DNA from: Oscillatoria sp. FACHB-1406
Lineage (GTDB): Bacteria > Cyanobacteriota > Cyanobacteriia > Cyanobacteriales > Spirulinaceae
DNA length: 64,000 nt
Reading direction: 5' to 3'
Assembly: GCF_014698145.1 (NCBI RefSeq)
Contig: NZ_JACJSM010000001.1
Location: 88,633-152,632, forward strand
Position numbers and translations under genes: made by a program. This document shows positions 5,362 to 63,973 of this stretch, one piece after another. The notes beneath the pieces were generated by a model, which was not told the origin of the DNA, did no database searches, and worked only from the letters and a program-made list of their open reading frames with translations. The stretch's first letter is position 1; the number at the start of each line of letters is the position of its first letter.

Positions 5362-5474
5362 CTTTACCTCCGGATCTTACTTGCTTACAACGAGACCCGG
5401 AGAGGCAAACGATTGTTAACCCGATTGCTAACAACCCCCTGCTTTCCCGGGTCTGCGGATTTTAACTAGCTAGT

Positions 5475-5963: not shown

Positions 5964-6031
5964 AGTTTCAATATCTCCCGATTATTTTGCAAAGTTTTGG
6001 TACAAAGAATCCTCTAAGGTGCAAGCTAGGT

Positions 6032-6550: not shown

Positions 6551-7268
6551 CGAATTTATCTCCTACTTGAGCTAAGTTTGAGTTTGGTTTGAAAAAAGGA
6601 GTTCCTCTTGGTCGGGCTTTGCCCTTGTCCCGAGGCAACTTGGCGGTTGGGGTGAAAGCGTATCTTTATCAGTCCGGGATACTCAAGGCTTTTCATTTTC
6701 TTGAGACCGTTTTCTCCTTAAGCCGGGAGAATATCTGACGGTTTCTTAACAAATCCCTAAAAACGAGTGGTTTTATGAGAGAGGTTACGAAAATGCGCGA
6801 GTTGAGATTCAGATTGACTTTGACTGCCTTCGTTTACCCTTCAGATAACTTTTATACAACGCTGTCGAGCTTTTTTTTGTTACATCTTGTTAAGTTTTTG
6901 AGGACGCTGGGTCTTAAACAAATTTAAACTTGACCCCTCGATCTCGCACTCGCTCAAGACTGAACAACTCTCCAAATTGGCAAGCTCGCTGCTCGACCCG
7001 ACATTGAGTAAAGTCGCTTGCGCTCTGCTGTTAATCCTCCTGGCCCGGAATTGTAACGGGCGAGCTTAACGGCTCGGCTCTCGCTGACTTGATACTCCTC
7101 ACAATTGAGGTTAAAGGATTGAGGCGCAAAAGGTATCGATCTTTACAGTTTTCAAAACAACTTAACAAAGCGCAACATAAAGATACGATAGGGCGATCTC
7201 AATGCACGAGAGGCGCGTTGATGATTCGAGCGAATGTGGGGGCAAACGAGTTCAGTCCCCTTCCTTCA

Positions 7269-8507
7269 TCAACCACGGGCGTGCTTTTGGAGAAAATAGC
7301 CCACTAAATAAAGAGAACCGCAGAGAATGACCGGTAAATCGCCTTCAATGGCGACATTTAAACCAGAAAAGAGATCGGGGAAGGTTTGGACGACGACATC
7401 GGGACAAGTCGCGCGGGCAATGACAGCCAGAGCTTCGGGGGGAGCGCTATCGGGGTTGGGAACCGGTACGAGGTACAAGCGATCGCCGGGACGCAGCAGA
7501 GCGGCGAAAATATCGGCTCGATCCTTTGTCGAAAGGATACCCATCACCCAAGTCACGGGAGAATCGAGCGTATTGACGTATTGCCGTAGAGCTATCGCTG
7601 CGGCGGGATTGTGCGCGCCGTCAAGCAAAATCGAGCGTCCCTGCCACCTCGTCCATTGCAATCGCCCCAGCCAGCGGGCGTTTGCCATCCCCGCTTGAAT
7701 CGCGGTTAGGGGAATTTTCCAACCCTGCTGCTGGAGAATTTGTAAACCCGCGATCGCGATCGCGGAATTCATTAACTGAAACTCTCCTAACAGCGATAAT
7801 GAATACTCAATTCCACCATATTCTGCGCGATGTTCGCCCATTTTTCGCGCTGGAGCGACCCAGACTGCCGGACAATTTACGGCGACAATTCTTTCTCGCA
7901 CAACCGCTTCAGCTTCGGGCGGCAATTGACCAACAACCACCGGACAATTATGCTTTAAAATTCCTGCCTTTTCGCGAGCAATATCGGCAACCGTCGGCCC
8001 CAAAACTTGCCAATGTTCGAGACTAATGGAAGTAATTGCTGTTAAGGCGGGTTTATCGCACACATTTGTTGCATCCAAACGTCCGCCCAAACCGACTTCG
8101 ATAACAGCAATATCCACAGATTGCTGCGCGAAATACAACCAAGCAGCAGCCGTAATGACTTCAAATTGTGTCGGACTTTCAGCTTTTACGGCAATCGCAG
8201 CTTTAACCTGCTTCAAAATCCGTTCTAATTCTGTCTTCGCGATCGCTTTGCCATTAACACAAATGCGTTCTGTCCAATCAACTAAATGAGGGGAAGTATA
8301 ACATCCGACGCGATAACCTGCGGCAGTCAGAACGGAGGAGAAATAGGCGCAGACAGACCCTTTGCCATTGCTTCCCGCAATGTGAATAATCGGAAATTCT
8401 TGTTGCGGATTTCCTAAGCCAGCAAGTAATTTCCGAATGCGATCGAGTCCGAGGTGAACGCCAAAGTGCTGTAACGAAGTTAAGATAGAGTCAATCGTGT
8501 CGGTCAT
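7269..8507 (-). CDS. folC: bifunctional folylpolyglutamate synthase / dihydrofolate synthase
   Basis: 412 aa with a Mur-ligase family P-loop (HIAGSNGKGSVCAY) and YTSPHLVDWTERI..NGK, typical of FolC. Confidence 0.85.
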   Translation of the reverse strand: MTDTIDSILTSLQHFGVHLGLDRIRKLLAGLGNPQQEFPIIHIAGSNGKGSVCAYFSSVLTAAGYRVGCYTSPHLVDWTERICVNGKAIAKTELERILKQVKAAIAVKAESPTQFEVITAAAWLYFAQQSVDIAVIEVGLGGRLDATNVCDKPALTAITSISLEHWQVLGPTVADIAREKAGILKHNCPVVVGQLPPEAEAVVRERIVAVNCPAVWVAPARKMGEHRAEYGGIEYSLSLLGEFQLMNSAIAIAGLQILQQQGWKIPLTAIQAGMANARWLGRLQWTRWQGRSILLDGAHNPAAAIALRQYVNTLDSPVTWVMGILSTKDRADIFAALLRPGDRLYLVPVPNPDSAPPEALAVIARATCPDVVVQTFPDLFSGLNVAIEGDLPVILCGSLYLVGYFLQKHARG

Positions 8508-8726
8508 TTCAGTTATCAGTAAGCAGCGATCGGTAAAGCGATTATTATTTTAAATCGAGGGAATAACACCAGTAATCTTGATAGGATTTTTCCCTAAAAG
8601 AAGGCTAAAACCCTTTTTTTTATTGAGGGCTGACAAGAAACACTCATTCAGCTAAAATTCAGAATTGCGCCCAATCCACTTAAAATTGTAAGAGTCCCCG
8701 ATTTTAGAAAGCCTAAAATTAAGACG

Positions 8727-11118: not shown

Positions 11119-11213
11119 ACCAATGAACATTGTTATGCCCTCTTCGGGAATCGTGAAAAATTAATGAGAATTGGTATAAGAACGGTATCAGTCCGCTCGT
11201 TATCCATTGTCAA

Positions 11214-12626
11214 TTACTCGACAGTTTCTCGCTTGCTGGCATAGGCAGAGGAACCGCCCAAGAAATCTTCCTCGCTATATCCTTCTTCTCCGTGAACGGG
11301 AACGTCAATCCCTTGCGTTTCAACTTCAGGATGGACGCGCAAGGGCATAATAGCTCCTAAAATTTTGAGTAGAACGAACGTGCCGACTGCTGCAAAAATG
11401 TAGGTCGCTGCAACCCCAACAAATTGCTCCCAAACCTGTACGGGATTGCCAAAGAATAAGCCATTATCGCCAAATTCATTGACGGCTTTAGTGGCAAACA
11501 AACCCGTCAACATCGCACCTACTGTTCCGCCAACGCCGTGAACGGGATAGGTATCGAGGGAGTCGTCGAACCGAAGTTTGGCGCGCCAACTGACGGCGTA
11601 GAAGCAGCAAACAGCCGTAATCGAACCAATCATAATCGCACCGATGGGAGTCACGAAACCAGCAGCGGGCGTTACGCCAACGAGTCCGGCAAGAAATCCG
11701 CTGGCGATGCCAATGGCGGTTGGTTTGCCGCGCAGCACCCATTCTAAAAGAACCCAGGTCAGTCCTCCAGCAGCAGTCGCGACGAGGGTAGCGACGAAGG
11801 CAACAGTTGCTAGCGCGCCCGCCCCTAATGCACTACCCGCATTAAAGCCGAACCAACCGAACCAAAGCAACCCGATTCCGAGAAGGACAAAGGGGACGTT
11901 ATGGGGCGGCGTTTGGCGATCTGGAAAGGTGCGACGCGGCCCTAAAACCCAAGCGGCGACAACGGCAGAAACCCCCGAACTGATATGAACGACGGTTCCT
12001 CCGGCGAAGTCTAACGCGCCGAAACTGCCAATCCAACCTTTACCCCAAACCCAGTGGGCGAGGGGGGAATAGATGAAGGTTGACCACAGCAAAACGAACC
12101 AAAAATAAGCTTTAAAGCTCATACGTTCGACGATTGCGCCGGAGATGAGTGCGGGGGTGATGATGGCGAACATAAGCTGGTACGCCATGAACACTTCGTG
12201 GGGGATGGTGGGCGCGTAGCCGACGGGATCGGGCGCATCGAAGGCTACACCGTTCAGGAAAAGCCAATTCAAGCTACCGATGAAGGGATTGGCGGTGAAG
12301 GCGGGATCTGCTCCAGGAGTGATGGAGGTGGGGGCAAAGGCGAGGCTGTAACCCCAGAAGACCCAAGTTACGCCGACGATAGCCATTAGAATGAGGCTCA
12401 TCATCATGGTATTGAGGACATTGCGCGATCGCACCAATCCGCCGTAGAAAAAGGCTAAGCCGGGAGTCATCAACAACACCAACGCTGAAGAGACGAGCAT
12501 AAAGGCCGTATCGCCCGTATCGATTTTTGGGGCAGCGGCGGCAGCCTCCTGGGCCCAAGCCGCTTCAGTAAACGGCCCGCCCATTAGTCCGAGGGCAAGC
12601 AGCAAAACGATTAAAATTTTTGCCAT
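11214..12626 (-). CDS. amt: ammonium transporter (Amt/MEP family) with cleavable signal peptide
   Basis: Amt-family TM protein (DFAGGTVVHISSGVSAVVAAWVLGPRR..., WFGWFGFNAGSA). The ORF track starts at 12677 (MTPAYFFNL...). The internal ATG at 12626 (MAKILIVLLLALGLMGG...AWAQEAAAA) gives the signal peptide typical of cyanobacterial Amt1 and is preferred. The longer form is not excluded. Confidence 0.85.
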   Translation of the reverse strand: MAKILIVLLLALGLMGGPFTEAAWAQEAAAAAPKIDTGDTAFMLVSSALVLLMTPGLAFFYGGLVRSRNVLNTMMMSLILMAIVGVTWVFWGYSLAFAPTSITPGADPAFTANPFIGSLNWLFLNGVAFDAPDPVGYAPTIPHEVFMAYQLMFAIITPALISGAIVERMSFKAYFWFVLLWSTFIYSPLAHWVWGKGWIGSFGALDFAGGTVVHISSGVSAVVAAWVLGPRRTFPDRQTPPHNVPFVLLGIGLLWFGWFGFNAGSALGAGALATVAFVATLVATAAGGLTWVLLEWVLRGKPTAIGIASGFLAGLVGVTPAAGFVTPIGAIMIGSITAVCCFYAVSWRAKLRFDDSLDTYPVHGVGGTVGAMLTGLFATKAVNEFGDNGLFFGNPVQVWEQFVGVAATYIFAAVGTFVLLKILGAIMPLRVHPEVETQGIDVPVHGEEGYSEEDFLGGSSAYASKRETVE

Positions 12627-12920
12627 ACAATTGTTCTTCTTTGTCGATCTGAGATTAAAAAAGTAGGCAGGTGTCAATAACCCTGCAACAGCCCGCAGTA
12701 ACCTTCCAGCACGAGCCCCCCCGCGCGACTCCTGCGGGTTTCATCGTTCGTAACGAGTTACGGTATATTGAGAAATTTTGGAGGATTTTGATAGGTGCAG
12801 CGCGTAAAATCAATACGCGAGAACACTAACGCTCTTCCTCGCGCTGAAAACTTTATTGATGTCAGCCGCTAGCTAGGCCAACTTCAAGAGTCATTCCATC
12901 AATTCCTGCAAGGCAATTCT

Positions 12921-13349: not shown

Positions 13350-14957
13350 CTACTCGTTTTCATCGGTAAGTCCGAGGGAACGAGTAGTTTCACTGTTTAA
13401 TTTTTCCTTGACAGTTTGCAAGATTTGTGCTTCCTCCGGAGTGATTTGGCTGTCGAGATCGGCGATTTTTTGGCATTGTGCTAAGAGCGGTACGGCAAAA
13501 TCGGGATTCACTTGCTCCAGCAACGCTTCGAGGTCGGCGGGCGCGTCTAAATGGGCGGTAATAGTTTCGAGGGAGGCGGGCGCAAAATTAGCAGCTTGCA
13601 AGGCAGCTAAAACTTCCTCGCGACTGAGATTGGGGTTGCCCGTGCGGACGAGATGAGCGAGGATGCGATCCATAAGAGTTTGTTGGGCGATCGCGTCTTC
13701 AACGTAATCATTACTTTCTTCCTTCGCTTGCTCCAAAGCCTCCGGTAGTGGCTTATTAGAATTCAGCTTCGCTTCGTAAAACCGACAAGCGCCGTAGCCC
13801 AGAGCATACACCATCGCAGCATTGCTCCCCGCCCCGATAACGGCTCCCGCGATCGGCACGTTTCGCAACAACGCTTCCAAACCCAGATTCAGAGCGCGAT
13901 TGCTACCTAAAGATAAACCGAAGATTGCCAAAACTTCCGCCTTTCGCTCCGGATCCTCTAAATCCAACCCGTACAAACCGGCGATTTGATAGACCATTTC
14001 TGCTTGCAGAAGCGTGGTTGAAGCCACGTCAATCGCTAACATCGGTACGACAGCACCGGGCAATAAGCTGGTTGCCAAACCCGAACCGCCAGCGAGCATC
14101 GCCTTTTGTAACATTACACGATGCGCGATCGCGCGCGGGCTTTCGTTCGGATACTGCTGCTTTAACTGCTCGACTTCGGCTTGCGCCTTCACCGCATCCA
14201 CTTCGTCAAGCAGCGCGATTAACCAATCGGCTTTAAACGCTTTCGCGAGTTGCTTCAAACCGGGAGTATTATCAATCGCTGCTAAAAGCTGTCCCGTTCC
14301 TCCCGCCAGCTTCCCCGCCGTGCCGCCGAGCGCGCTAGCCGCTCCTTTCATCGCACCGCCCGCTTTCGCCGCCGTCGTTCCCAGCGCCCCGCCAACGGTT
14401 TCTCCCGCACGTCCTGCCGCCGAACCGACAGCACCCGCCACGCCTGCAACGGTTTCTCCCGCGCGTCCAGCGGCATCTTTAGCCGTTTCGCCCGCGCGTC
14501 CTGCCGCCGAACCGACAGCCCCCGCTACGCCTGCAACGGTTTCTCCCGCACGTCCAGCGGCATCTTTAGCCGCTTCCCCCGCGCGTCCGGCCGCCGAACC
14601 GACAGCCCCCGCAATCGCGCCCAGCCACCCGGATTTCGAGGGTGTGTTTTGCTTGGGCTGTTTTCCCTCAGCGATCGCAAATTCCTCTTCCCAATCCGGA
14701 AACTCATCGCCGCTCTTTTTAGCGTAGACTTTCACCTGGCGAATTTGGGTCAGCGCTAAATCCTGGAGTGCTTGACGGAGCGGCGGGAGAAGCGAACGTT
14801 CTGGAGTGCTTTCCCCAGAAAGCATCACTTGCAACAGGGCTTTCTCAACCGAGACTTTAACGGTCAGTTGTTCGGAAGCTAAGGCTTGCTGGAGGAAAGA
14901 TGCGATCGCGTTAGGATCGCCTTCTCGAGCCGCTTCGATCGGGTTGATTGGATTCAT
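13350..14957 (-). CDS. hypothetical protein with three tandem 25-aa Ala/Gly-rich repeats, a hydrophobic DUF697-like region and a C-terminal TerB-like tail
   Basis: 535 aa. Repeats are (GAVGSAAGRAGE[A/T]AKDAAGRAGETVAGVA)x3. A central hydrophobic region (LLPGAVVPMLAIDVASTTLLQAEMVYQIAGLYGLDLEDPERKAEVLAIFGLSLG...) is present. The DUF697/TerB assignments are recollections. Confidence 0.6.
   Translation of the reverse strand: MNPINPIEAAREGDPNAIASFLQQALASEQLTVKVSVEKALLQVMLSGESTPERSLLPPLRQALQDLALTQIRQVKVYAKKSGDEFPDWEEEFAIAEGKQPKQNTPSKSGWLGAIAGAVGSAAGRAGEAAKDAAGRAGETVAGVAGAVGSAAGRAGETAKDAAGRAGETVAGVAGAVGSAAGRAGETVGGALGTTAAKAGGAMKGAASALGGTAGKLAGGTGQLLAAIDNTPGLKQLAKAFKADWLIALLDEVDAVKAQAEVEQLKQQYPNESPRAIAHRVMLQKAMLAGGSGLATSLLPGAVVPMLAIDVASTTLLQAEMVYQIAGLYGLDLEDPERKAEVLAIFGLSLGSNRALNLGLEALLRNVPIAGAVIGAGSNAAMVYALGYGACRFYEAKLNSNKPLPEALEQAKEESNDYVEDAIAQQTLMDRILAHLVRTGNPNLSREEVLAALQAANFAPASLETITAHLDAPADLEALLEQVNPDFAVPLLAQCQKIADLDSQITPEEAQILQTVKEKLNSETTRSLGLTDENE
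14382..14621. repeat. in-frame tandem repeat, 75-bp period, ~3.2 copies, inside CDS 13350..14957
   Basis: The DNA repeats ...gcacgtccagcggcatctttagccg(t/c)ttc(g/c)cccgcgcgtcc(t/g)gccgccgaaccgacagcccccgc(t/a)a(c/t)... This corresponds to the 25-aa protein repeat. Confidence 0.75.
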
Positions 14958-15000: not shown

Positions 15001-15085
15001 AATGGACAATTGACAATGGGCATTAATTGGCAATTATCAATTATTACAATCGTTGTCCATTGTCAATTATCAATTATCCATTATG
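15001..15085. repeat. AT-rich palindromic intergenic element built from GGACAATTGACAAT / TTGTCCATTGTCAATTATCAATTAT units (genome-specific repeat family)
   Basis: Inverted arms aatGGACAATTGACAATggg ... cgTTGTCCATTGTCAATTATCaattatccatta. Related copies at 16780..16950, 34001..34190, 37425..37465, 58321..58463 and 63070..63108. Confidence 0.6.
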
Positions 15086-16666: not shown

Positions 16667-17001
16667 AAAATGATTTCATTCCGCTCAACCATTGCCTAGT
16701 GTACGCGAGCGCCTCCCCGCTTCTGAATTTGTAGATCGATAAATTTACACTTTGGGCGACGGAAGTCAGAGATAATTGACAATAGCAACTGATAATTGAG
16801 AATTTTGAATTGCGAGCGTAAGGGACTGATAGGTTTCTTCCGATTGTGCGATCGCGCTTTTAAATTTCCCCAAAGGTAATCGAGGGAGAAACTTGGTAGA
16901 ACTGCTTACTCTCCATTAATAACTAATAACTGATAACTATTAACTGCAAAGCAATAGAGTACAGTAGGTACTATACCTTCAAGGACAGGTGTGCCTTAAT
17001 T

Positions 17002-21195: not shown

Positions 21196-21368
21196 CCGCA
21201 GGAGAACGCGACCCAATCGTGCTAAATTGAACGGATCTCGTTCGGTTCGGATGGGGAGCAGCCATTCGATATTAAAGGGGAAAGTTCGGTGCAAATCCGG
21301 CGCTGTCCCGCAACTGTGAGGCATTTTTCAAAATGCTAAGTCAGGAAGCCCGCCGAAACGATTCAATT
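21196..21368 (+). promoter_or_regulatory. cobalamin (AdoCbl/B12) riboswitch in the 5' leader of hupE/ureJ
   Basis: Conserved core AAGGGGAAAGTTCGGTGCAAATCCGGCGCTGTCCCGCAACTGTGAG followed by a B12 box AGTCAGGAAGCCCGCC. Both match the cobalamin riboswitch consensus (GGTGAAAATCC...CCCGCCACTGTGA...AGYCMGGAxxCCxGCC). Confidence 0.75.
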
Positions 21369-21401
21369 TGGCTTAATTTATCAAACATCTGCGAGGTACG
21401 G

Positions 21402-22046
21402 ATGATTTTAAAAATGAAAAGTGTTTCGGGGCGCGCCATTGCGCTAGGTTTAAGTATTGGGATCTTCAGTTTAGCGATCGCGACTCAACCCGCTTTTGCC
21501 CACCATGCAATGGGCGGAAGAATGCCCGCTAACTTTTTTGAAGGGTTTATCACAGGTTTAGCGCATCCCATTATCGGTTTCGATCATTTTGCTTTTATCA
21601 TCGCAGTTGGCTTATTCGCCGCGCTTAAACCCCAAAAAGGTTGGTGGATTCCGGTTGCTTTTGTGATTGCCACATTAGGCGGTACGGGGCTGCATCTTTT
21701 GAAGTTGAATATTCCTTTTTCAGAAGCCTTTGTAGCCGCTTCAATTATTTCAGTAGGGTTACTGTTTGCTGCCAATTGCACCCCAGCGCTTGCCGGTGCG
21801 ATCGCGTTTTCCGCGCTAGCAGGAATTTTCCACGGTTATGCTTACGGCGAATCGATTGTTGGGGCGGAACCAACGCCATTAATCGCGTATTTAATGGGGT
21901 TTGCAGCGATTCAACTCGCGATCGCGTCGGGTGTTTGTTGGGGGTGGCGCGCTTTGCAAACGAAAGGTAGCTTAACTGCCAGTTCGCTGCGTTTTGTAGG
22001 TTTGATTTTCTGCGCGATCGGGGCAACTTTTTTAGCGATCGGCTAA
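21402..22046 (+). CDS. hupE: HupE/UreJ family Ni/Co transporter
   Basis: Signal peptide plus HupE signature (AFAHHAMGG...GFITGLAHPIIGFDHFAFIIAVGLFAA). The ORF-track start at 21333 overlaps the riboswitch, so the ATG at 21402 (MILKMKSV...) is preferred. Confidence 0.8.
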   Translation: MILKMKSVSGRAIALGLSIGIFSLAIATQPAFAHHAMGGRMPANFFEGFITGLAHPIIGFDHFAFIIAVGLFAALKPQKGWWIPVAFVIATLGGTGLHLLKLNIPFSEAFVAASIISVGLLFAANCTPALAGAIAFSALAGIFHGYAYGESIVGAEPTPLIAYLMGFAAIQLAIASGVCWGWRALQTKGSLTASSLRFVGLIFCAIGATFLAIG

Positions 22047-28718: not shown

Positions 28719-28790
28719 GCCGATGTAGCTCAGTGGTAGAGCACTCGATTCGTAATCGAGCGGTCGTGAGTTCAAATCTCATCATCGGCT
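28719..28790 (+). tRNA. tRNA-Thr (anticodon CGU)
   Basis: GCCGATGTAGCTCAGTGGTAGAGCACTCGATTCGTAATCGAGCGGTCGTGAGTTCAAATCTCATCATCGGCT folds as a cloverleaf with a 7-bp acceptor stem GCCGATG/CATCGGC, D-loop AGCTCAGTGGTAGAGC and T-arm GTGAGTTCAAATCTCAT. The anticodon loop is TTCGTAA. No CCA is encoded. Confidence 0.9.
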
Positions 28791-30102: not shown

Positions 30103-32067
30103 TTATTCTGCTGTAGAAACTTTCCCATCCCCCGTTACCGCCGTCGAGAAAGTGTGTCCGCCCGCTTCTACTTTTAACGTTCCTACCTTCCAGCCCAAGG
30201 AAACAATCGACGGCCCGGAAACGACGCGATAGAGATCGAAATGCTGCAACCAATCGTAAACTTCGCCGTTACGTTCAATAATAGGAAGTTGTTCGAGAGC
30301 GCGCCAAGTTAAATTAAGGGTATTGCTATCACTCCCTTTTAACCCCACCGTTCCTTCCTTTAAACGAGCAAGATTTAACTCTCCCTTACGCTTCACCGCT
30401 TCCTTAAAACGAGCGTAATCATTCCCCTCTACGAGATCGCCCGTTTCTAACGCAAAACCGGCTAGTTCTTGACCCTTTGGGGTGGCTTTTATCCATCGTT
30501 CTGCCCCGTAACCGCGCGTCGCTTTCTTTTCCGGTATGGGAACGTCTGTATAATCATTAAGTTGAATCGGACGAATCGCGATCGCAACTTTTTCTAATCG
30601 CACAAACCAAATTCCCTCTTCAATCTCCATCTTCGCTGTTTTCGGCAGTTGAAAAAAGAACGGTCGGTTGGCCGGACGCAACCAAATTAAGAGATTGCGG
30701 AACTGTCCGATTTGGTCGCCCGGATTTTTCCCCGGTTTCACGCCTTCCTCGCCCGTATTGGCAACAAAAAAGTCAACGCCGCGCTGAGAATTATTGGCCA
30801 TGATTTTAAATGGCCCGACATCGCCATCGGCAAACCCAGAAACAACGCTGCCCATTTGATACGTCCGCCCGAAAAACTGAGTTTCCCAATACGCCGGTTT
30901 ATCCTCCCCGTCCTGCTTCCAATTTTCATAAATTGGTTTCGTCGCCATCATCTCGACGGGTTGCTTGAATTGCTTTCGCGCCAAGGCAACGACAGCTAAG
31001 GGCGGTCGGTAGCGACTGGTAATCATGTAGAGGGTATCGAGTTCGGGTTCGGGGTTGGGCTGGGGAACATCGCCGAAGTAGAGGTCGAAGGTACGCGCCG
31101 CAGAAGAACCGTAAACGACGTTAGCACCGCCGTAATCGCGTTTTGTCGGCCCGCCCCAACCGCCGCGACGATATTTAAGGGCAGCAGCGGTTGACATCCA
31201 ATCTAAGGCGGCTTTGGCGATCGCTTTGACTTCGGAGTCTTTGGCGAAGTCGTAGAGGTTGAGGTAGGGGGCAAAGGTGTGACTGTGGTAGTTTTCTGAG
31301 TCCCATTCGCCCATCCCGATGTGGTATAGCGCCCAAACGTAACGCTGGATTTTTTGCTTGTAGAGTTGGCGGACGGCTTCGTTTCCGGTTTCTTCTGCCA
31401 TGAGGTAAACGGAGGTTTCACGCATGGCGCGCAGGTTATCGGTGTTGCGCCCGTCTACCCACAATCCGCGCCGCTGAATCGACCAGTCTTGTCCGCTGCC
31501 ATCACCGTTTCCGTAAAGGGGATGGGGACGTTCGAGGGGGTCGCGTTCCGTCCATTTTTTGGCACCGTCAAACATTCGTTGTTTGTAGGCGGGGTTGAGG
31601 AAGGAACCGAAGAGGAAGTATTTGCGAATTTGACCTTTGAGGGTGAAGGAGAAGTAGTAGTCAATGCCGTCGGTGTGGGCGTGTTCTGGGGTTTGGGAGT
31701 CTTCTTGTTGGAGAAAGGCGATCGCGCGTTCTTTATTTCCGGCGAGAAAGTCGAACATAGCGCGAGGATAAGATCGTTTCTCGTTTTCTTGGGTCGTGTT
31801 CCCATAGGTTTTGGGGTTGCTGTAAAGCTGGATAATGGCAAGCGCGCGCTGCTCGAATTCGGCTTCGAGTTCCGGAGTCCAAGGGTTTTGCAGTTTTTGT
31901 GGAATGTCGGCCGGTTGGAGATTGAGAAAAGGCCCGCGATCGGAGGGACGCGGGACGATAGCAGCCGAATTTGGGGAAGAAGGGGAGAAATTGGGAGCTA
32001 TGCAACCGCAAAGCGCGATCGCGAGTGCAATGGCTGTATTCTGAATTCTTAATGTCAGCTTCCTCAT
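30103..32067 (-). CDS. large secreted hypothetical protein, probable lipoprotein (654 aa); possible polysaccharide-acting enzyme-like fold
   Basis: N-terminal signal peptide ending ...IALAIALCGC (lipobox-like), Trp/Tyr-rich body and no confident domain. Confidence 0.55.
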   Translation of the reverse strand: MRKLTLRIQNTAIALAIALCGCIAPNFSPSSPNSAAIVPRPSDRGPFLNLQPADIPQKLQNPWTPELEAEFEQRALAIIQLYSNPKTYGNTTQENEKRSYPRAMFDFLAGNKERAIAFLQQEDSQTPEHAHTDGIDYYFSFTLKGQIRKYFLFGSFLNPAYKQRMFDGAKKWTERDPLERPHPLYGNGDGSGQDWSIQRRGLWVDGRNTDNLRAMRETSVYLMAEETGNEAVRQLYKQKIQRYVWALYHIGMGEWDSENYHSHTFAPYLNLYDFAKDSEVKAIAKAALDWMSTAAALKYRRGGWGGPTKRDYGGANVVYGSSAARTFDLYFGDVPQPNPEPELDTLYMITSRYRPPLAVVALARKQFKQPVEMMATKPIYENWKQDGEDKPAYWETQFFGRTYQMGSVVSGFADGDVGPFKIMANNSQRGVDFFVANTGEEGVKPGKNPGDQIGQFRNLLIWLRPANRPFFFQLPKTAKMEIEEGIWFVRLEKVAIAIRPIQLNDYTDVPIPEKKATRGYGAERWIKATPKGQELAGFALETGDLVEGNDYARFKEAVKRKGELNLARLKEGTVGLKGSDSNTLNLTWRALEQLPIIERNGEVYDWLQHFDLYRVVSGPSIVSLGWKVGTLKVEAGGHTFSTAVTGDGKVSTAE

Positions 32068-34000: not shown

Positions 34001-34190
34001 CTAGCTGAATAATGGACAATTGACAATTGATAATGGACAACGTTCGTACAAATTCATTGCTCCCTTGAGGCGAAGTCTCTTTTTAGGGCATCGGTACTAA
34101 TTGGAGGTGTAAGGGTATGGGCAATAGAGCCATTAACGGCTCCGAACGTTATCAATTGTCCATTATCAATTGTCAATTATTCACCGCTCG
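34001..34190. repeat. GGACAAT/TTGACAAT-type palindromic intergenic element (two inverted arms ~30 bp separated by ~120 bp)
   Basis: Left arm aatGGACAATTGACAATTGATAATGGACAA (34001..34030) and right arm TTATCAATTGTCCATTATCAATTGTCAATTATT (34150..34182) are reverse complements. Confidence 0.6.
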
Positions 34191-34393: not shown

Positions 34394-36199
34394 GTGAGGA
34401 AAATTGTGAAATCCAATCAAATTAAACCCTTCGAGACATTTAGCACTTCAGCATTGCTCGTAAGCACTTTGCTGCTATCTGTATCGCTCAAAGCAGCAGC
34501 AAACCCCGCTACTCCAGAGGTTCCCTCTGAACTCTCTACGCCGGTTTTACCTCAACCTACAGAGGTTCCCTCTGAACTCTCCACGCCTGTTTTACCTCAA
34601 CCTACAGAAGATGGCAATCAGGCTGCCCTCAATGAGATTGAAAGCTATAGCAACACCGAGGCAGAAAGTTCCCTCGGTCAAGAGTTGCAAGGAGCTTCCA
34701 AATTTCGCGACGTTCGTCCCACTGACTGGGCCTTCCAAGCCTTAGATGACCTCATTAAGCGCTACGATTGTCTCGTTGGCTATCCCGACGGAACTTTTCG
34801 AGGCAATCGTCCCCTCAGCCGTTACGAATTTGCCGCCGGTTTGAATGCTTGTTTGAATCAAATCGAACGGTTAATCTCCTCTTCTGGTGGTGATTTCGCC
34901 ACTCGCGAAGACCTTGAAACGTTGCGTCGCCTGATGCAAGAGTTTGAAACCGAACTTGCTTCCCTCGGTACTCGCGTCGATAACTTAGAAGCACGTACTG
35001 CCTTCCTAGAAGATCATCAATTCTCGACGACAACGAAACTATCGGGCGAGGTGATTTTTGCTCTTTCCGATGCTTGGGGCGGTCAAACCGATAATACCCA
35101 TACTGTCTTTCAAAACCGAGTTCGTCTCAATTTCCTAACCAGTTTTACCGGCAAAGATCAACTGCAAGTCCGCCTGCAAGCTGACAACGCGCCGCCTCTG
35201 TTGCCCGGTAACATGGTCTTTAACGATAACCCTAACCCGACAACAACCCAAGAAGGGCGTTTCACTTACGACGGTCCCAATCCCGGCAATACGCCCAATA
35301 ATGTTTTTATTGACATCCTGCGCTATCGTTTCCCCATCGGGAATAAAATCAACGTGCAGATTATTGCCAACGGTGGTTTGCATCATTACTACGTCGATAC
35401 CGTAAACCCTTATTTTGAAGGATTGGCGGGCGGTTCTAATGCCATTTCGCGCTTTGCGGAACGCAACCCCATCTATCGTATCGGGCCGTTTGGAGCGGGT
35501 GCGGCGGTCGCCATTAAACCTTTAGATGCGGTGCGCGTCGATTTAGGATATATTGCCAACGAAGCTGAGGATCCTGGTTCCGGTTCGGGATTGTTTAATG
35601 GTAATTATTCCGCGATCGCGCAAGTCGTTGTCGGTAATACTCATAAAATCGGCTTCACCTACGTCCACGCTTACGACGGCACAACCGCTGCGACTTTCCC
35701 CACGCGCTTTGCTCTGGGCGGAACGGGAACCAGTTATGCTAACCTTGCCCCTGCTGCCCTCGCGCGTATTACCGGACTTCCTGCCGCTCGGATGAATACG
35801 CCTGTCGTGAGTAACTCCTACGGGATCGAAACCTCTTTACCCATTACGCCCAACATTGTTTTTAACGGCTGGGTGGGATTAACCAATGCGCGTTTGATCG
35901 GTTTGGGCGATGCTAATATTTGGAACTTCGCTGGCGGTTTAGCGTTCCCGGATTTAGGTCAAGCGGGCAATCTCGGCGGTCTCTTTTTCGGGGCAGAACC
36001 GACGCTACGCGGCTTGCGGACTTCGGGTAATCGCTCTTTTTCTCGAGATTTTGCTTACCATTTCGAGGCATTTTACCGCCACCAAATTGGGAAAAATATC
36101 TCCATTACTCCGGGGGTAATTTGGTTGCTCAATCCCAACCAAAATTCAGCTAATAATGACGCGGTGATTGGGACATTACGAACGACGTTTACGTTCTAA
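34394..36199 (+). CDS. SLH-domain outer-membrane porin (OprB/SomA-like), paralog of 17672..19357
   Basis: Signal peptide, duplicated PEVPSELSTPVLPQPTE segment, SLH domain (FRDVRPTDWAFQALDDLIKRYDCLVGYPDGTFRGNRPLSRYEFAAGLNACL), coiled coil and a beta-barrel ending ...TTFTF. Confidence 0.8.
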   Translation: MRKIVKSNQIKPFETFSTSALLVSTLLLSVSLKAAANPATPEVPSELSTPVLPQPTEVPSELSTPVLPQPTEDGNQAALNEIESYSNTEAESSLGQELQGASKFRDVRPTDWAFQALDDLIKRYDCLVGYPDGTFRGNRPLSRYEFAAGLNACLNQIERLISSSGGDFATREDLETLRRLMQEFETELASLGTRVDNLEARTAFLEDHQFSTTTKLSGEVIFALSDAWGGQTDNTHTVFQNRVRLNFLTSFTGKDQLQVRLQADNAPPLLPGNMVFNDNPNPTTTQEGRFTYDGPNPGNTPNNVFIDILRYRFPIGNKINVQIIANGGLHHYYVDTVNPYFEGLAGGSNAISRFAERNPIYRIGPFGAGAAVAIKPLDAVRVDLGYIANEAEDPGSGSGLFNGNYSAIAQVVVGNTHKIGFTYVHAYDGTTAATFPTRFALGGTGTSYANLAPAALARITGLPAARMNTPVVSNSYGIETSLPITPNIVFNGWVGLTNARLIGLGDANIWNFAGGLAFPDLGQAGNLGGLFFGAEPTLRGLRTSGNRSFSRDFAYHFEAFYRHQIGKNISITPGVIWLLNPNQNSANNDAVIGTLRTTFTF

Positions 36200-37413: not shown

Positions 37414-37559
37414 GACTACCTCGATCGGTTATCAGTTATCAGTTATCAATTGGCAGTTATTTAAAGTTCAACGGCGGAGTGCCAACTCTACAGTTAATTT
37501 CTTATACGCAATTAACCCAGCAGAAATTCTGCTGGGTTAACCAAGATTCACGACTATTG

Positions 37560-57604: not shown

Positions 57605-57961
57605 TCGTTTCTACGCCCCCAAAAGTTTACGCGCTACGTGACCGAATGGCGCTCCGATCGGAATCTGTTCATCCAATCCGAACATCAATCGAGGTGGATT
57701 TTATTACGTTTTAGCTTCTGCGTCTAGTGCGGTATCCAAATTTATGTTAGAGTACCGCTTTTTGCCTAAGCTTTCTTTATCGATGCTGCTCGCTTGATTT
57801 GGCTTCAAAGATGAATCCGGCGAGATTATGCTATTTTCGGGGTTCCGTCGCCGGTTTCCGGAATAAAAAATGCTTTAAATCGAAGTTGCTTCTTTTCTTG
57901 ACGGGTTTGCGCTACACTGGAAACAACGATTAAATACTGATGTACCAACTAGGTTTAGCTT

Positions 57962-58324
57962 ATGAGTCTCAATATGGTTCATTTGGTCGGTCGTGCCGGT
58001 ATGAATGCCGATATTAAGTATTTTGATTCGGGGAAATCGATTGGCGAGGTGACTTTGGCAGTTCGTCGCATGAGTCGGGACGACCAACCGGATTGGTTTA
58101 ATTTAAAATTTTTCGGTAAAACGGCAGAAATTGCGAATAATTATGTGAAGAAAGGGGCGTTAATTGGCGTTCAAGGGTCTTTAAAAATAGAAACCTGGAA
58201 CGATGCAACTACGGGTTCTTTACGTTCTAAGCCGGTTATTTATGTGAGTCGTTTAGATTTATTGGGGTCGAAGCAAGATACGGAAGCGGCGGCTGCGAGT
58301 TACTCGGAAAGCGGGTATAATTGA
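57962..58324 (+). CDS. ssb: single-stranded DNA-binding protein
   Basis: 120 aa with an OB fold (MVHLVGRAGMNADIKYF.SGK.IGEV.LAVRR...DWFNLKFFGKTAEIA..YVKKGALIGVQGSL). Confidence 0.85.
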   Translation: MSLNMVHLVGRAGMNADIKYFDSGKSIGEVTLAVRRMSRDDQPDWFNLKFFGKTAEIANNYVKKGALIGVQGSLKIETWNDATTGSLRSKPVIYVSRLDLLGSKQDTEAAAASYSESGYN

Positions 58325-58463
58325 CAATGGACAATGGACAATGGACAATGAATAATTATTACTAGAATTGATAATTGATTCAAGAGCTTCAAAAACCGAT
58401 TCTACCTTATCTTATTGAGAAGTTTATCAATTATCCATTGTCCATTATCAATTATCCATTAAT
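58321..58463. repeat. GGACAAT-type palindromic element between convergent ssb and SIMPL gene (arms TTGACAATGGACAATGGACAATGGACAATGAATAATTATT / TCAATTATCCATTGTCCATTATCAATTATCCATTAAT); probable bidirectional terminator
   Basis: Two ~40-bp arms are reverse complements separated by ~60 bp. The GGACAAT unit is tandemly repeated 3x in the left arm. The right arm overlaps the stop codon of the SIMPL gene. Confidence 0.6.
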
Positions 58464-59229
58464 ACGAGATTTCTAAGGTGACGGAAGCATTAACTGCTTG
58501 GTCGCCGCCGATAACGGGGCTACTAGCTGCTTCCCCTCGCACCATCGCATTTTGTAGGTAAATTGGCGGGTTAACGTTTTGTCCGTTAATGACAATTTTG
58601 ACGATATCTTTGCGGCTGAGATTGAGGGAACTTAAGACCGCATCGGCTTGGGATTGTGCATCTTGGGTGGCTTCGCGCAGGGCTTGCTTTTGGGCGGCTG
58701 AAATGGCGCTATCCTCAGCGATGAAGCTTACGCCGTCGATGCGCGTCGCCCCAGTTTGAATCGATTCGTCCATTAATGCTCCGGCTTTTTCCGTAGGAAC
58801 GCGGAAGCTTACCGTATTTGTACCGATATAGCCGATGAGATTTTGCTGCTCGTTCCGATAGTCGTAGTTGGGTTGCAAGCTAATGCCGGTGGTTTGCAGT
58901 TGGGCGACATTGCGCGATCGCAACAAGTTAACTACGGCAGAGGTACGACTGGCAACTTCTTGTTGAACTTCAGCGGCGGTTTTGCCCCGGATTTCAACGC
59001 CGAGTTGCACGCGCGCGATGGTTGTGGGGATAACTTCTTCACCTTGTCCGGTGACGGTTAAGGTTCGCAAGGCTCGTTCTTGGGCTTCGGCGCTCATCGG
59101 GAATGCTAGGGTTAAAAGGGCAGCGGCGATCGCAATCTGTCTGGGATAATGCGATATAACGGAGAGCGAAGTAAATCGTTGGGGCAAATATAATTTCATC
59201 GTTAATTGAAGATTAAAGAATCTCCTCAC
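58459..59229 (-). CDS. SIMPL-domain (DUF541) periplasmic protein
   Basis: 256 aa with a signal peptide and the SIMPL pattern (LTVTGQGEE...A.V.LGVE..GKTA.EVQQE...). The family assignment is recalled. Confidence 0.7.
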   Translation of the reverse strand: MRRFFNLQLTMKLYLPQRFTSLSVISHYPRQIAIAAALLTLAFPMSAEAQERALRTLTVTGQGEEVIPTTIARVQLGVEIRGKTAAEVQQEVASRTSAVVNLLRSRNVAQLQTTGISLQPNYDYRNEQQNLIGYIGTNTVSFRVPTEKAGALMDESIQTGATRIDGVSFIAEDSAISAAQKQALREATQDAQSQADAVLSSLNLSRKDIVKIVINGQNVNPPIYLQNAMVRGEAASSPVIGGDQAVNASVTLEISY

Positions 59230-59655
59230 AGGTTACTAACCTTCATCGTAGGTCTCGCGGCAAAGCATCGCACCCGGGTTACAATTTTTGTAACTGAGAG
59301 GCATATTAGGCTTGGAAGCCCCTCAGAGTAAGTTTTGGGAGTTTAGGTCGAGCGAGGGCTACTTTGAGCGAAAAATTGCGTCCTTAGCTCTGTTGTAGCG
59401 AAACTTTAACATTTTCAGAGGGAAAGCAGTTTTTTTACATAATTTCTAAAAATATAATTCAATTTGCGGAAATTTATGTATCCTAAAGAATAAGCGTTTC
59501 GGCCTATTCCGGACGACTTGTAGAGTGGATAACTTTTTGGGTCTAACTCGATCGACTCCTCCAATCGGTAATTTTCTGAGCAGGAAAGATTGACTTAGAA
59601 ATAAGTTTTGCGAACCCATCTAAATCAAGTGCCAAACAAAATTGCCACCTGAAGA

Positions 59656-62924: not shown

Positions 62925-63071
62925 ATTCCCAACTCCCAACTAATAGCTATAGCAGTTTTCACCTAGATGAGGTACACCCAGCGGGCGAATACCATTCGCC
63001 CCGTCTCGAAATCCGCGCCCCTACCGATTTGATTTTTGGAACTGTACCTCACGCCAACGAAAAACGCTATA
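62925..63071. repeat. degenerate, TIR-less relative of the MITE-like element at 29828..30064
   Basis: It shares GCTATAGCAGTTTTCA(a/c)(t/c)T(g/a)GATGAGGTACA and GTACCTCACGC(a/c)(c/a)A(t/c)GAAAAACGCTATA with the 29828 element, with a different central hairpin (GGGCGAATACCATTCGCCC). Confidence 0.5.
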
Positions 63072-63109
63072 TTCATTATTCATGATTCATCATTCATTAT
63101 TCATTAAAA

Positions 63110-63973
63110 TCAGGGCAGCCAACGAGGGCGCATTCCGGTAAGGGGAAGCTCAACTAAGTCGGGCTGAGATTTTTCGTCGGGGACGGCGGAAGGAGCAATA
63201 AGCAGCCAAAGTTTGCTGGAAACGATCGCGTCGCCAGAATTCGTTCTTAATAAGGCTCTATCGTTGAGGTTAGAATCGACAATGATGCGATCGAATAAAA
63301 CCCCAATTCCATCGGGGGCTAAACTCATCTGTATATCTCGATAGTCGGGCAGCTTAACAATGGGCGCGCCCTTTGCTTTTTCTAAATCGATCGCGGCAAA
63401 ATAGGGTTTTTCGAGATATTTTTCGCCTTCGGAAACTTCTGTTAGCAAGCAATACAAAATCGTACTCGAAGGGCTGAATTGACAGTTAACAATTGAGCCT
63501 TTCACGTCGGCAACTTTGCGCTGCGTGCCAAGAGCGTCTACTACATAAAGCGATTGGACGTAGCGCAATTTCGGATCGTTTTGATTGAAATTTACGAAAA
63601 CGGCAGCGGAACCGTCTCGATTGAAACTCAGAATTCTGCCAAATTGCGGTAAGAAATCTAGAGCTTTTTCTTGTTCGTTGAGGGGAAAAACAGCAATTCC
63701 TTCACCTTTAGCGGCGACAAGGGTTTGACTGTCCGGCGCGATCGCAAAATCGCCGCTCGGTGTATCGTTAAGGGGTTGAATTTCGTTATTCTCTCGTTTA
63801 ATCCAAAGTTTGGTATCAGCAGGATTTTTGCGATTGATACGCTGAATGACGATGTTTTTGCCATCGCGAGAGAGATCGAATTTGAGGTTTTGATAGTCTT
63901 GATTATTTACGACTCGTTCGATACTGTTAGCAGTTGGTTCTGCGGTGTCTAAGCCCGTAGGAACTTCGTACAA
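63110..63973 (-). CDS. hypothetical protein, possibly beta-propeller-like; reading frame stays open to the window edge, so the 5' end may be truncated
   Basis: 287-aa ORF. The frame upstream of Met 63973 has no stop through base 64000. Confidence 0.5.
   Translation of the reverse strand: MYEVPTGLDTAEPTANSIERVVNNQDYQNLKFDLSRDGKNIVIQRINRKNPADTKLWIKRENNEIQPLNDTPSGDFAIAPDSQTLVAAKGEGIAVFPLNEQEKALDFLPQFGRILSFNRDGSAAVFVNFNQNDPKLRYVQSLYVVDALGTQRKVADVKGSIVNCQFSPSSTILYCLLTEVSEGEKYLEKPYFAAIDLEKAKGAPIVKLPDYRDIQMSLAPDGIGVLFDRIIVDSNLNDRALLRTNSGDAIVSSKLWLLIAPSAVPDEKSQPDLVELPLTGMRPRWLP

Follow-up and report, generated by a model that had tools for sequence, protein, structure and literature searches.

The classical STRR1-3 repeats of cyanobacteria are built from the units CCCCAGT, TTGGTCA and CAACAGT. 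Hairpins formed by 7-bp STRR repeats are described as 'not unusual in filamentous cyanobacteria', with examples in hupS-hupL spacers, including that of Lyngbya, and a possible part in transcript stability or termination has been proposed for them, although their function is unknown (PMC2670836). A related heptamer, TAACTGA, occurs overwhelmingly as direct repeats 5' of start codons, with only 1 inverted set among 170 in the Guaymas genome (MacGregor 2015, PMC4679880). The same paper summarises earlier work in which heptamers came out as the most frequent of the long simple-sequence repeats of prokaryotes and slippage was given as their cause (Mrazek 2007, via PMC4679880). Each REP sequence is a single imperfect palindrome, rich in G+C and 20-40 nt long, that has a GTAG/CGTC head and is mobilised by RAYT transposases; REPs are known for stabilising the 3' ends of upstream mRNAs. 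Among MITEs, the Correia elements end in promoter-like sequences and serve as terminators or as sites for RNase III, and MITEs have been reported to be abundant in Cyanobacteria (with the most diverse set in Okeania) and to be common to phages and their hosts. Cyanobacteria lack Rho, and canonical terminators account for only a minority of their 3' ends (PMC12642595).

Here we describe an intergenic element of Oscillatoria sp. FACHB-1406, a filamentous, non-heterocystous cyanobacterium, found in a 64-kb window (the whole stretch of DNA that was analysed, 64,000 nucleotides in length). This 58-kb element, named for its position, is an addition to the known cyanobacterial class of STRR and other heptamer repeats that form intergenic hairpins.

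Opposed heptamer arrays fill the ssb/SIMPL spacer

The element at 58319-58460 has a 72-nt core set between two tandem arrays of the heptamer AATKGAY, which face each other and have five units each (Table 1). The 142-bp element occupies the entire spacer between ssb and the SIMPL gene, and both genes take their stop codons from the arrays: the TGA of ssb (58322-58324) falls within the first unit of the left arm, while the TAA of the SIMPL gene (minus strand, 58459-58461) overlaps the outermost unit of the right arm. TRF detected a period of 7 in both arms, with 4.6 copies at 58319-58350 and 5.4 copies at 58424-58461, and the same period at 15.0, 34.0, 37.4 and 63.1 kb. The inverted-repeat arms are 38 nt long, 82% complementary and 68 nt apart. 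With its terminal inverted repeats, small size and lack of coding capacity (there is no ORF of 40 amino acids or more), the element carries features of a MITE; its core contains no G+C-rich terminator hairpin, and neither the fetched loci nor the rest of the window have a match to it. An earlier, sequence-only reading of this DNA had noticed a tandem triplication of GGACAAT, which is indeed seen in the left arm, and had missed the 7-nt tandem unit; it is this unit that places the element with the cyanobacterial STRR and TAACTGA heptamer repeats.

Paired arrays also occur at 34 and 15 kb. The 34-kb element begins 12 nt past the stop codon of an M23 peptidase gene; its arms have an identical unit order, offset by one unit, and its stem continues inward via ACGTTCG/CGAACGT. 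In the 15-kb element the third sense unit is degenerate and further degenerate units lie between the arms, and the pgi stop codon, TAA (minus strand, 15074-15076), arises at a unit junction. No sequence is common to the cores of the three paired elements, so that what had been called highly similar copies are similar, in the window, in their arms only; with three unique cores, we rejected a conserved MITE core within the window.

Of the six inverted-arm sites listed in the sequence-only reading, each supposedly forming a long AT-rich hairpin, three (15.0, 34.0 and 58.3 kb) are paired and have such a predicted hairpin, whereas the other half (16.8, 37.4 and 63.1 kb) are not hairpins and consist of solo direct arrays of one-base unit variants. 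The region 16780-16950 has no inverted repeat of any kind; it holds two direct arrays on one strand, of which the 16774-16812 array sits in the divergent pgi/nfeD spacer and the 16917-16946 array lies about 55 nt upstream of an NfeD-like ORF (start 17002). The presumed hairpin at 37425-37465 turned out to be a single direct AACTGAT/AATTGAT array that runs forward and stops 11 nt short of the prfA ATG (37413), and that at 63070-63108 a single direct (AATGAAT)5 array on the minus strand, which begins 3 nt past the stop codon of ORF 63110-63973. A further solo array, of two units, was found at the ammonium transporter gene (amt; 11214-12677, minus strand).

Table 1. Heptamer arrays and paired elements in the 64-kb window of Oscillatoria sp. 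FACHB-1406
Feature	Position	Strand	Description
Left arm, 58-kb element	58319..58353	+	AATTGAC AATGGAC AATGGAC AATGGAC AATGAAT
Core, 58-kb element	58354..58425	.	72 nt, unique save two extra sense units at 58366-58379
Right arm, 58-kb element	58426..58460	-	AATGGAT AATTGAT AATGGAC AATGGAT AATTGAT (minus-strand reading)
Second paired element	34011..34178	.	Four sense (34011-34038) and four antisense units (34151-34178), 112-nt unique core
Third paired element	15001..15082	.	Three sense units (15001-15021) against four antisense (15055-15082)
Solo two-unit array	11202..11215	-	AATTGAC AATGGAT (minus-strand reading); overlaps ammonium transporter stop codon
Degenerate solo sense array	16774..16812	+	AATTGAC AATAGC AACTGAT AATTGAG AATTTTG; no inverted partner
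Solo direct array	16917..16946	+	TAACTRA-like units; strand as in the 16774 array
Solo direct array	37424..37460	-	AACTGAT/AATTGAT units (TAACTGA type); no inverted partner
Solo direct array	63070..63106	-	(AATGAAT)5 (minus-strand reading); AATGAAT is a one-base variant of AATGGAT

With up to one mismatch allowed, the double-unit pattern AATKGAYAATKGAY matched 23 times in the window against 0.25 expected, and 23 matches were reached in 0 of 100 shuffles; the sequence-only reading had named a frequency equal to expectation as the result that would count against it, and the frequency found is far above chance. Of the 36 tandem-repeat rows for the window, which contains at least eight arrays, 13 are period-7 arrays. 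HIP1 is also frequent here, with 88 matches against 3 expected. The intergenic siting reported earlier holds throughout: every motif match lies between genes or overlaps a stop codon only, and the arrays stay outside ORF bodies. All three paired elements start within -9 to +12 nt of a stop codon, and four neighbouring genes (ssb, SIMPL, pgi and amt) have their stop codon supplied by an array. Furthermore, polarity in the window is fixed, the strand that bears stop codons facing each incoming gene.

Comparison with described repeat classes

Like STRRs, the elements consist of tandem 7-nt units in at least three copies, are intergenic and dispersed, and reside in a filamentous cyanobacterial host, and in both cases opposed, hairpin-forming arrays lie between genes (at hupS-hupL and upstream of hoxW for STRRs, and in the three elements found here). 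They differ in that the unit is AATKGAY rather than one of the STRR1-3 units, that the host is a non-heterocystous Oscillatoria, and that both unit and architecture reach other phyla and phages. Given its unit, the element is STRR-like in kind and falls outside STRR1-3.

The TAACTGA repeats differ from the present unit by one base (AACTGAT versus AATTGAT), with both forms mixed in the 37424-37460 array, and share with it forward-strand stops in all frames and a spread across Cyanobacteria and Bacteroidetes. The flagged elements are, however, inverted pairs 3' of stop codons. When tested for the TAACTGA unit, the 58-kb element was found to have AATTGAC, AATGGAC, AATTGAT and AATGGAT instead; within the window AACTGAT units are confined to the 37424-37460 array and, in part, the 16917-16946 array. 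Only the 37.4-kb array holds the TAACTGA-type position, forward and a few nucleotides before a start codon, the 58-kb element lying between two stops.

REPs and REPINs resemble the elements in being extragenic and in forming a long hairpin from two inverted arms at gene ends, but the arms here are AT-rich tandem heptamers without the GTAG/CGTC head. With MITEs (Nezha and other cyanobacterial MITEs, and the Correia elements of Neisseria) they have in common a size of 80-220 bp, inverted termini, a stable predicted hairpin, an intergenic position, multiple copies in some genomes and presence in phages. In contrast to MITEs, they showed no target-site duplications and no cognate IS was found in the fetched loci, in place of a fixed TIR they have tandem repeats of variable number at their ends, and their cores are not conserved within the window. 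As a description of the architecture, the earlier label of a REP/MITE-like family is fair; as a class assignment, it fails on the REP head and on the target-site duplication of a MITE, as well as on a conserved core as far as the window goes. Integron attC sites (RYYYAAC ... GTTRRRY) were also considered for the gene-element-gene arrays of phages and rejected: the flanks are CTTATTT...AAATAAG and similar, without AAC/GTT boxes, and the genes flanking the elements in phage contigs encode terminase, portal and capsid proteins and are not cassettes.

Predicted folding and searches for regulatory signals

On either strand, the predicted fold of the 58-kb element is a long AU-rich hairpin. Fold energies of -42.5 and -52.8 kcal/mol (z -5.2 and -7.7) were obtained for this element, and the predicted folds of the 34-kb and 15-kb elements reach -67.4 kcal/mol (z -6.3) and -27.6 kcal/mol (z -4.3), respectively. 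A terminator scan of 57800-59400 returned 0 terminator-like sites, the 58-kb element having neither a G+C-rich stem nor a U-tract. Partial and weak features of intrinsic terminators were seen in the other two elements: a weak terminator-like hairpin followed by T5 in the 34-kb core (34067-34084) and, on the minus strand of the 15-kb element, a stem followed by CUUUUAAAA, a U-run. Concordance between the arms at the variable K and Y positions was 0.631, against 0.636 +/- 0.026 for random unit draws; being no higher than in such draws, it provides no covariation signal for a selected stem. Rfam returned nothing at gathering score on the elements in the window, on 18 genome loci or on 7 viral loci, and we rejected membership of an Rfam family, the sub-threshold hits (NsiR8, with 18.7 bits where 61 are required, and hairpins of plant miRNAs) being judged to be chance.

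A promoter scan identified TTGACA-N17-GACAAT (10 of 12 positions) at 58321-58349, together with two more inward-facing sites in the 58-kb element, and TTGACA-N16-AATTAT at 15010-15037; the 34-kb element has no site of the TTGACA/GAYAAT type. The site count, 4, compares with 2.3 +/- 1.3 in shuffles, and the 7-nt repeat period makes a 17-bp spacing of TTGACA and GAYAAT automatic.

Distribution and polarity outside the window

The sequence-only reading had wrongly taken the family to be specific to this genome. A three-unit AATKGAY pattern matched at least 120 stretches in a scan of GTDB species representatives, with Cyanobacteria, Bacteroidota, Clostridia and other groups among the matches listed. 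In unbiased genome loci the polarity of paired arrays is invariably (AATKGAY)n-core-(RTCMATT)n (42:0, with a further count of 22:0), and in viral contigs the ratio is 43:1. The rule spans Cyanobacteria, Bacteroidota, Clostridia and phages of 38-65% G+C. Other heptamer families yielded six pairs in which we could ask whether the stop-bearing strand forms the 5' arm, with a mixed outcome. Neither the polarity rule nor the spread of the unit across phyla and phages is stated in the STRR and heptamer papers (PMC2670836, PMC4679880), and the literature that could be searched does not contain the exact AATKGAY unit strings.

About 70% of the arrays elsewhere are solo and hence cannot form a paired-arm hairpin, and an array-borne stop codon is used by only about 40% of the genes that adjoin arrays. 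Sense arrays contain stops in all three frames within three units, and antisense arrays contain none. Phage contigs carry up to nine copies of the element in 10 kb, between structural genes, nine being the number in IMGVR_UViG_3300002931_000010; a search for annotated phage records returned arm fragments only, in unannotated faecal contigs. Related elements from Clostridia and clostridial phages have a core in which an A/T tract is surrounded by two hairpins that show compensatory changes, a sequence arrangement that looks like a bidirectional terminator. In Crocosphaera sp. XPORK-15E, three copies that are more than 95% identical, core included, lie within unrelated flanks and differ by one unit. 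Internal sequence common to several copies was seen in Crocosphaera and in phage contigs, whereas the three cores of the 64-kb window are unrelated.

The ssb-SIMPL region has a sole syntenic relative among the loci compared, L126; L001-L005, L127-L130 and L131 are not syntenic with it. The ssb-SIMPL spacer of L126 contains other heptamers (GGTTTGA/GGTGACA) in a partly inverted arrangement, and this locus carries several further period-7 arrays. No target-site duplications flank the copies in the window, in Crocosphaera or in phage contigs, and the 1.47 Mb of fetched loci held no autonomous element or cognate IS with matching termini. At the loci examined no transposase gene is enclosed by paired arms, and no transposase or RAYT family was matched in Pfam among about 30 window ORFs, a set that leaves out most of the ribosomal-protein cluster. 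The only protein families common to the 43 viral loci are those of phage structural genes.

Discussion

On balance, we think it probable that the element is a non-coding heptamer-array palindrome of the STRR class that acts as a 3'-end RNA hairpin, either as a terminator or as a stabiliser. We infer this RNA role from position and predicted folding, and a terminator or 3'-hairpin role is plausible because every paired element begins 0-12 nt past a stop codon. A transcript arriving from either neighbouring gene would fold the arms into an imperfect stem of 30-35 bp immediately 3' of the stop codon; in a host that lacks Rho, this stem would most likely define or protect the mRNA 3' end through termination, pausing or the blocking of 3'-exonucleases, and the sense-strand stops in all three frames would keep ribosomes out of it. 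Replication slippage would alter the number and order of units, and whole elements may spread as MITE-like copies in some genomes. The fold z-scores, the weak terminator features at 34 and 15 kb and the terminator-like cores of the clostridial and phage elements speak for the RNA role, and the L126 heptamers, the offset unit order at 34 kb and the one-unit differences in Crocosphaera for turnover in place. Against a hairpin function stand the strict polarity and the retention of the heptamer in phages of 65% G+C, which a hairpin does not explain, as well as the lack of a G+C-rich stem and U-tract in the 58-kb element, the absence of a covariation signal and the large share of solo arrays elsewhere; strict polarity is left unexplained by a simple slippage model as well.

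It is possible, if somewhat unlikely, that these are non-autonomous mobile elements of a MITE- or REPIN-like kind, in which the arms would be oriented heptad sites for a putative transposase or recombinase and the cores interchangeable cargo, often terminators, with any effects on neighbouring genes being secondary. Terminal inverted repeats predict exactly the fixed polarity seen in genome and viral loci, and mobility would be in line with the keeping of one heptamer across phyla and phages of widely differing G+C content, with the near-identical Crocosphaera copies and the dense phage copies, with unit-by-unit variation of the arms that lacks co-variation, as expected of protein sites, and with the published abundance of MITEs in Cyanobacteria and their sharing between phages and hosts. 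This reading is weakened by the lack of target-site duplications, by the absence of a transposase within the arms or among the scanned window ORFs and of a non-structural protein family common to the viral loci, and by unique window cores, variable unit numbers and the many solo arrays; in addition, the other heptamers at the ssb-SIMPL site of L126 favour local turnover over insertion. A further reading, which we put forward as speculative and unlikely, regards AATKGAY arrays as oriented recognition sites of a putative, horizontally travelling protein that moves or builds palindromic 'terminator cassettes'. Such a protein may be a transposase, a recombinase or an RNA- or DNA-binding factor, and the polarity (42:0 and 43:1), the AT-rich heptamer in phages of 65% G+C and the lack of arm co-variation may all be compatible with it.

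We consider it rather unlikely that the arrays lack a function and arose by polymerase slippage as a heptamer microsatellite, tolerated only where harmless, with the observed rules being selection filters. The standing of heptamers as the commonest long prokaryotic simple-sequence repeats, as relayed in PMC4679880 from Mrazek 2007, agrees with this account, as do the free variation in unit number and order and the presence in L126 of other heptamers at the same place along with further period-7 arrays; since sense arrays carry stops in all frames and antisense arrays none, the orientation relative to genes could itself be a tolerance filter. Slippage nevertheless leaves unexplained the opposed pairing around a core, a polarity of 100% when only a minority of adjoining genes use the array-borne stop, and both an AT-rich heptamer in phage DNA of 65% G+C and near-identical dispersed copies. 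A regulator or nucleoid protein might instead bind the arrays as DNA and read the heptads cooperatively, which we regard as very unlikely; the 7-bp periodicity, fixed orientation and unit-by-unit variation without co-variation would suit binding sites of this kind, and there are resemblances to known ones. The omega repressor of pSM19035, a ribbon-helix-helix protein, reads the heptad WATCACW, and the Fur half-site is TGATAAT. We take the TGATAAT in the arrays to be a match to the Fur 7-1-7 half-site and TATCAAT to lie one base from the omega heptad, resemblances that serve as leads only; those to DnaA boxes and to IHF, Fur and CsrA sites are presumably all partial matches. However, the arrays lie at gene 3' ends rather than at promoters, with up to nine copies between phage structural genes, and the loci have no candidate protein in common. 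The IHF/HU-like binding proposed by the sequence-only reading finds no support: of the IHF consensus the element has, as we see it, no more than the WATCAA half. Finally, the arms could be inward-firing promoters, with TTGACA and GAYAAT 17 bp apart, that yield short convergent RNAs from the core. We judge this extremely unlikely: the inward-facing sites at 58 and 15 kb speak for it, but the 34-kb element has none, counts barely exceed those in shuffles, and transcripts would run into the core hairpins. Moreover, the promoter consensus of Bacteroidota differs from the TTGACA type, and these bacteria carry the same elements. It is more likely that the promoter-like sites are a hazard pointed inward by selection than that they have a function.

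For 35 years STRR-type heptamers have served in the fingerprinting of cyanobacteria with no function assigned to them. The formation and protection of 3' ends in these Rho-less organisms is an open question (PMC12642595), and the elements sit where a 3'-end signal is expected. For annotation, it matters that four window genes take their stop codon from a repeat, as changes in unit number could thereby alter the C-termini of the encoded proteins. The orientation rule provides a sharp experimental handle, as inversion of the arms should matter if the rule reflects function, and its reach across phyla and phages suggests that a single coherent and widely shared type of element may lie concealed in generic MITE catalogues. 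If the heptamers are indeed recognition sites of a travelling protein, the Oscillatoria copies would belong to a type of small mobile element that crosses phyla, occurring in Cyanobacteria, Bacteroidota, Clostridia and their phages, and that enters DNA at the 3' ends of genes and leaves no target-site duplication.

A heptamer-repeat element fills the spacer between ssb and the SIMPL gene

The element at 58 kb is built from a 7-nt tandem repeat with the consensus AATKGAY, arranged as two opposed arrays whose arms, at 38 nt each, are 82% complementary and lie 68 nt apart. The ssb stop codon, TGA, sits within the first unit of the left arm, and the TAA stop of the SIMPL ORF overlaps the outermost unit of the right arm; since both gene ends fall in the arms, the element makes up the whole of the spacer. 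RNA folds of the element were predicted at -42.5 kcal/mol (z -5.2) for the plus strand and -52.8 (z -7.7) for the minus strand, and the DNA fold at -22.2 (z -4.2). The ssb protein ends in ...SESGYN* here and in ...SEGEF* in L126, the closest syntenic relative found (JGI metagenome 3300081958; SIMPL protein 79% identical). In the window its final codons and stop are supplied by the first heptamer unit, and the 3' end of ssb therefore seems to have been overwritten by the repeat.

Across the window, the double unit (at most one mismatch) was matched 23 times against 0.25 expected and no shuffle attained 23, confirming a motif above chance expectation; 7 is also the commonest period when all tandem repeats are counted. 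The sequence-only reading had listed GGACAAT, TTGACAAT and TTATCAATTAT as units. The repeat is present, but these strings are really one AATKGAY heptamer in other registers or on the other strand. Inverted arms forming hairpins had also been assigned to six sites, of which those at 15.0, 34.0 and 58.3 kb are palindromic, whereas those at 16.8, 37.4 and 63.1 kb are direct arrays; no inverted repeat was found in 16780-16950, where both arrays are direct and run along the same strand. The observation is thus real yet overstated, and its interpretation partly right. The cores of the three paired elements have no sequence in common with one another or with any fetched locus.

Window features, and heptamer elements at other loci (L006-L125, genome loci; L153-L195, IMG/VR viral loci)
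Feature	Position	Strand	Details
Left arm, 58-kb element	58319-58353	plus	AATTGAC AATGGAC AATGGAC AATGGAC AATGAAT
Right arm, 58-kb element	58426-58460	minus	AATGGAT AATTGAT AATGGAC AATGGAT AATTGAT
ssb	57962-58324		L126 homologue at 3740-4108
SIMPL-domain protein gene	58459-59229	minus	
Paired element	34011-34178		4 units/arm, 112-nt core; begins 12 nt past M23 peptidase stop; fold -67.4 kcal/mol (z -6.3)
Paired element	15001-15082		pgi stop codon made at unit junction; fold -27.6 kcal/mol (z -4.3)
Solo direct array	37424-37460		AACTGAT/AATTGAT units (TAACTGA-type), rpmE-prfA spacer; ends 11 nt 5' of prfA (RF1) ATG
Solo array	63070-63106	minus	(AATGAAT)5, 3 nt past a stop codon
Two-unit array			Overlaps ammonium transporter gene stop codon
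Inverted repeat	37512-37540		Perfect 14-nt arms TTAACCCAGCAGAA / TTCTGCTGGGTTAA, loop 1 nt, ~20 nt 3' of rpmE stop; looks like a separate terminator-type hairpin
Cobalamin riboswitch	21226-21371		58 bits; directly 5' of HupE/UreJ-family ORF 21333-22046
tRNA gene	28719-28790		
Coding tandem repeat	14398-14612		87-nt unit x2.5, 93% match, within EcsC-like ORF 13350-14957
Coding tandem repeat	34515-34608		45-nt unit x2.1, N-terminal part of OprB/SLH porin ORF 34394-36199
Crocosphaera sp. XPORK-15E copies	L067 5428-5579; L081 2541-2699; L101 6006-6157		Heptamer arms and two-hairpin core
Two-hairpin core with GATTTAAAAT	L166, L156, L071, L094, L119, L123		
L126 array	2777-2831		(ACTCCTG)x7.9, 5' of SIMPL gene
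L126 array	3690-3729		(ACCTCAA/ACCTGTC), ssb-SIMPL spacer

HIP1 (GCGATCGC) occurs 88 times in the window against 3 expected, an excess that is typical for cyanobacteria and unconnected with the heptamer family. The SIMPL-domain protein matches one from Oscillatoria sp. FACHB-1406 at 100% identity, and the window also carries mreBCD, a cluster of ribosomal-protein genes and a phycocyanin operon; with HIP1, these identify the DNA as chromosomal and from a filamentous non-heterocystous cyanobacterium. No transposase family was matched among ~30 window ORFs scanned against Pfam, and for the large ORFs 8727-10916 (729 aa) and 30103-32067 (654 aa) Pfam returned nothing at E <= 1e-5.

A new sequence within a known repeat class

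Tandem repeats with 7-nt units are known from filamentous cyanobacteria in general. According to one study, intergenic hairpins in Anabaena, Nostoc and Lyngbya are formed by STRR sequences, 'usually made up of 7 bp repeats', whose role it treats as unknown, naming transcript stability, translational coupling or termination as proposals (PMC2670836). The TAACTGA direct repeats described by MacGregor in Beggiatoaceae, Cyanobacteria and Bacteroidetes lie mostly just 5' of start codons, put stops into each of the three forward frames and occur intermixed with related heptamers, inverted sets accounting for 1 of 170 (PMC4679880). Read in the AATKGAY register, TAACTGA becomes AACTGAT, one base off AATTGAT, and the array before prfA fits MacGregor's description exactly (the 5'-leader placement reported for Beggiatoaceae and cyanobacteria), whereas the 58-kb element is an inverted pair 3' of genes. 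Given the known 7-bp STRR hairpins and this kinship with TAACTGA, the element is a new sequence within an established class, the heptamer repeats / small palindromic repeats of cyanobacteria; its function we infer.

At gathering score, Rfam gave no match to the elements of the window, of 18 genome loci or of 7 viral loci. Sub-threshold matches (plant miRNA hairpins; NsiR8 at 18.7 of 61 bits) were judged to be chance. Exact double-unit strings were absent from searchable papers in any relevant context, and matches in annotated phage records were limited to arm fragments in unannotated faecal contigs.

Spread across genomes and phages

The family had been taken to be genome-specific. A scan of the three-unit AATKGAY pattern over one genome per GTDB species instead returned at least 120 stretches from several phyla; among the matches listed, counted from record titles, are ~31 cyanobacterial, ~53 Bacteroidota and ~14 Clostridia loci with scattered others, the cyanobacterial loci listed including Okeania, Crocosphaera, Dapis, Trichodesmium, Lyngbya, Microcoleus, Rivularia and Symploca. 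Widespread as the pattern is, the ssb-SIMPL spacer of L126 has other heptamers (GGTTTGA/GGTGACA/GGTCTGA, partly inverted in arrangement), and no AATKGAY was found at this locus despite several other period-7 arrays. Heptamer families thus vary among related lineages.

The viral contigs, which carry genes for terminase, portal, capsid and scaffold, are fragments of real phages. Their G+C ranges from 38% to 65%, and as many as nine elements occur per 10 kb, the majority beginning no more than a few bases from a stop codon. One of them, L163 (IMGVR_UViG_3300002931_000010, 525-10019), has nine heptamer-arm palindromes over 10 kb, most of them starting 0-20 nt past a stop codon, among genes for terminase, portal, an HK97-gp10-like protein, ADP-ribosylglycohydrolase and TnpB/IS605 OrfB. 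This contig also contains a large internal inverted duplication.

Copying and local turnover

Are the elements mobile rather than home-grown? Crocosphaera sp. XPORK-15E has three ~165-nt copies that lie in unrelated flanks and match one another, core and all, at >95% identity; one of them has a heptamer unit more than the others. Elements from Clostridia (Oscillospiraceae) and their phages likewise have a common core, in which two short hairpins with compensatory changes stand either side of GATTTAAAAT; framed by heptamer arms, this core looks like a bidirectional intrinsic terminator. MITEs, moreover, are reported to be abundant in cyanobacteria and common to phages and hosts. Against classical transposition, target-site duplications were not found at the copies examined, those of Crocosphaera included, the fetched loci have no transposase between the arms, and no partner protein is common to the 43 viral loci. 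The window cores are also unique, and L126 has different heptamers at the same site. Our reading is that local slippage turnover of arrays and occasional copying of whole elements both operate.

Proposed action at mRNA 3' ends

The elements lie 0-12 nt past stop codons, and the repeat itself provides stops; either transcript is predicted to fold into a long, AU-rich and imperfect stem. Such a stem would most likely act by marking or protecting the mRNA 3' end; a plausible variant would have RNase III process the predicted 30-35 bp stem. Cyanobacteria are without Rho, and in a model strain no more than about one transcription unit in five is explained by a canonical hairpin-plus-U-tract terminator (PMC12642595). 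Of the three paired elements, the 34-kb one has a weak canonical terminator in its core and the 15-kb one a U-run after its stem; in the 58-kb one no canonical terminator was found.

Opposed arrays keep one polarity

The 120 genome loci L006-L125 were selected solely for one array. A strict search within 400 nt found a partner in 22 of these listed loci, in every case as (AATKGAY)n-core-(RTCMATT)n and never in reverse order, and a relaxed search of the same loci (>=17/21 positions) placed the partner downstream of 42 arrays and upstream of none. IMG/VR, an independent test, gave 43 stretches with the convergent pattern versus 1 with the divergent, the latter on a contig that also holds a convergent match (L186). 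Polarity is kept in Cyanobacteria, Bacteroidota, Clostridia, Acidobacteriota, phages of 38-65% G+C and the three window pairs. Because hairpin stability is the same in either polarity, structure alone does not account for the rule. At the K and Y positions the arms agree no better than random unit draws (0.631 vs 0.636 +/- 0.026); they therefore behave like two separate arrays of a single oriented motif rather than like co-varying stem halves or fresh copies.

Oriented protein-binding sites in the arms, by analogy with terminal inverted repeats, are one candidate source of this polarity. Another would be ORF hygiene: three units suffice to stop every sense frame, and stop codons are absent from the antisense strand. 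With genes called crudely, a sense gene ends at the 5' edge of 47/155 arrays, roughly 40% of these genes having their stop codon inside the array (counted from listed distances). Polarity may also reflect a promoter hazard, in which predicted promoter-like sites point inward: sense arrays generate TTGACA-N17-GAYAAT with 10/12 positions matched, and the observed polarity aims these sites at the core. It is this cross-phylum, phage-borne and strictly polar architecture that we consider the part worth pursuing.
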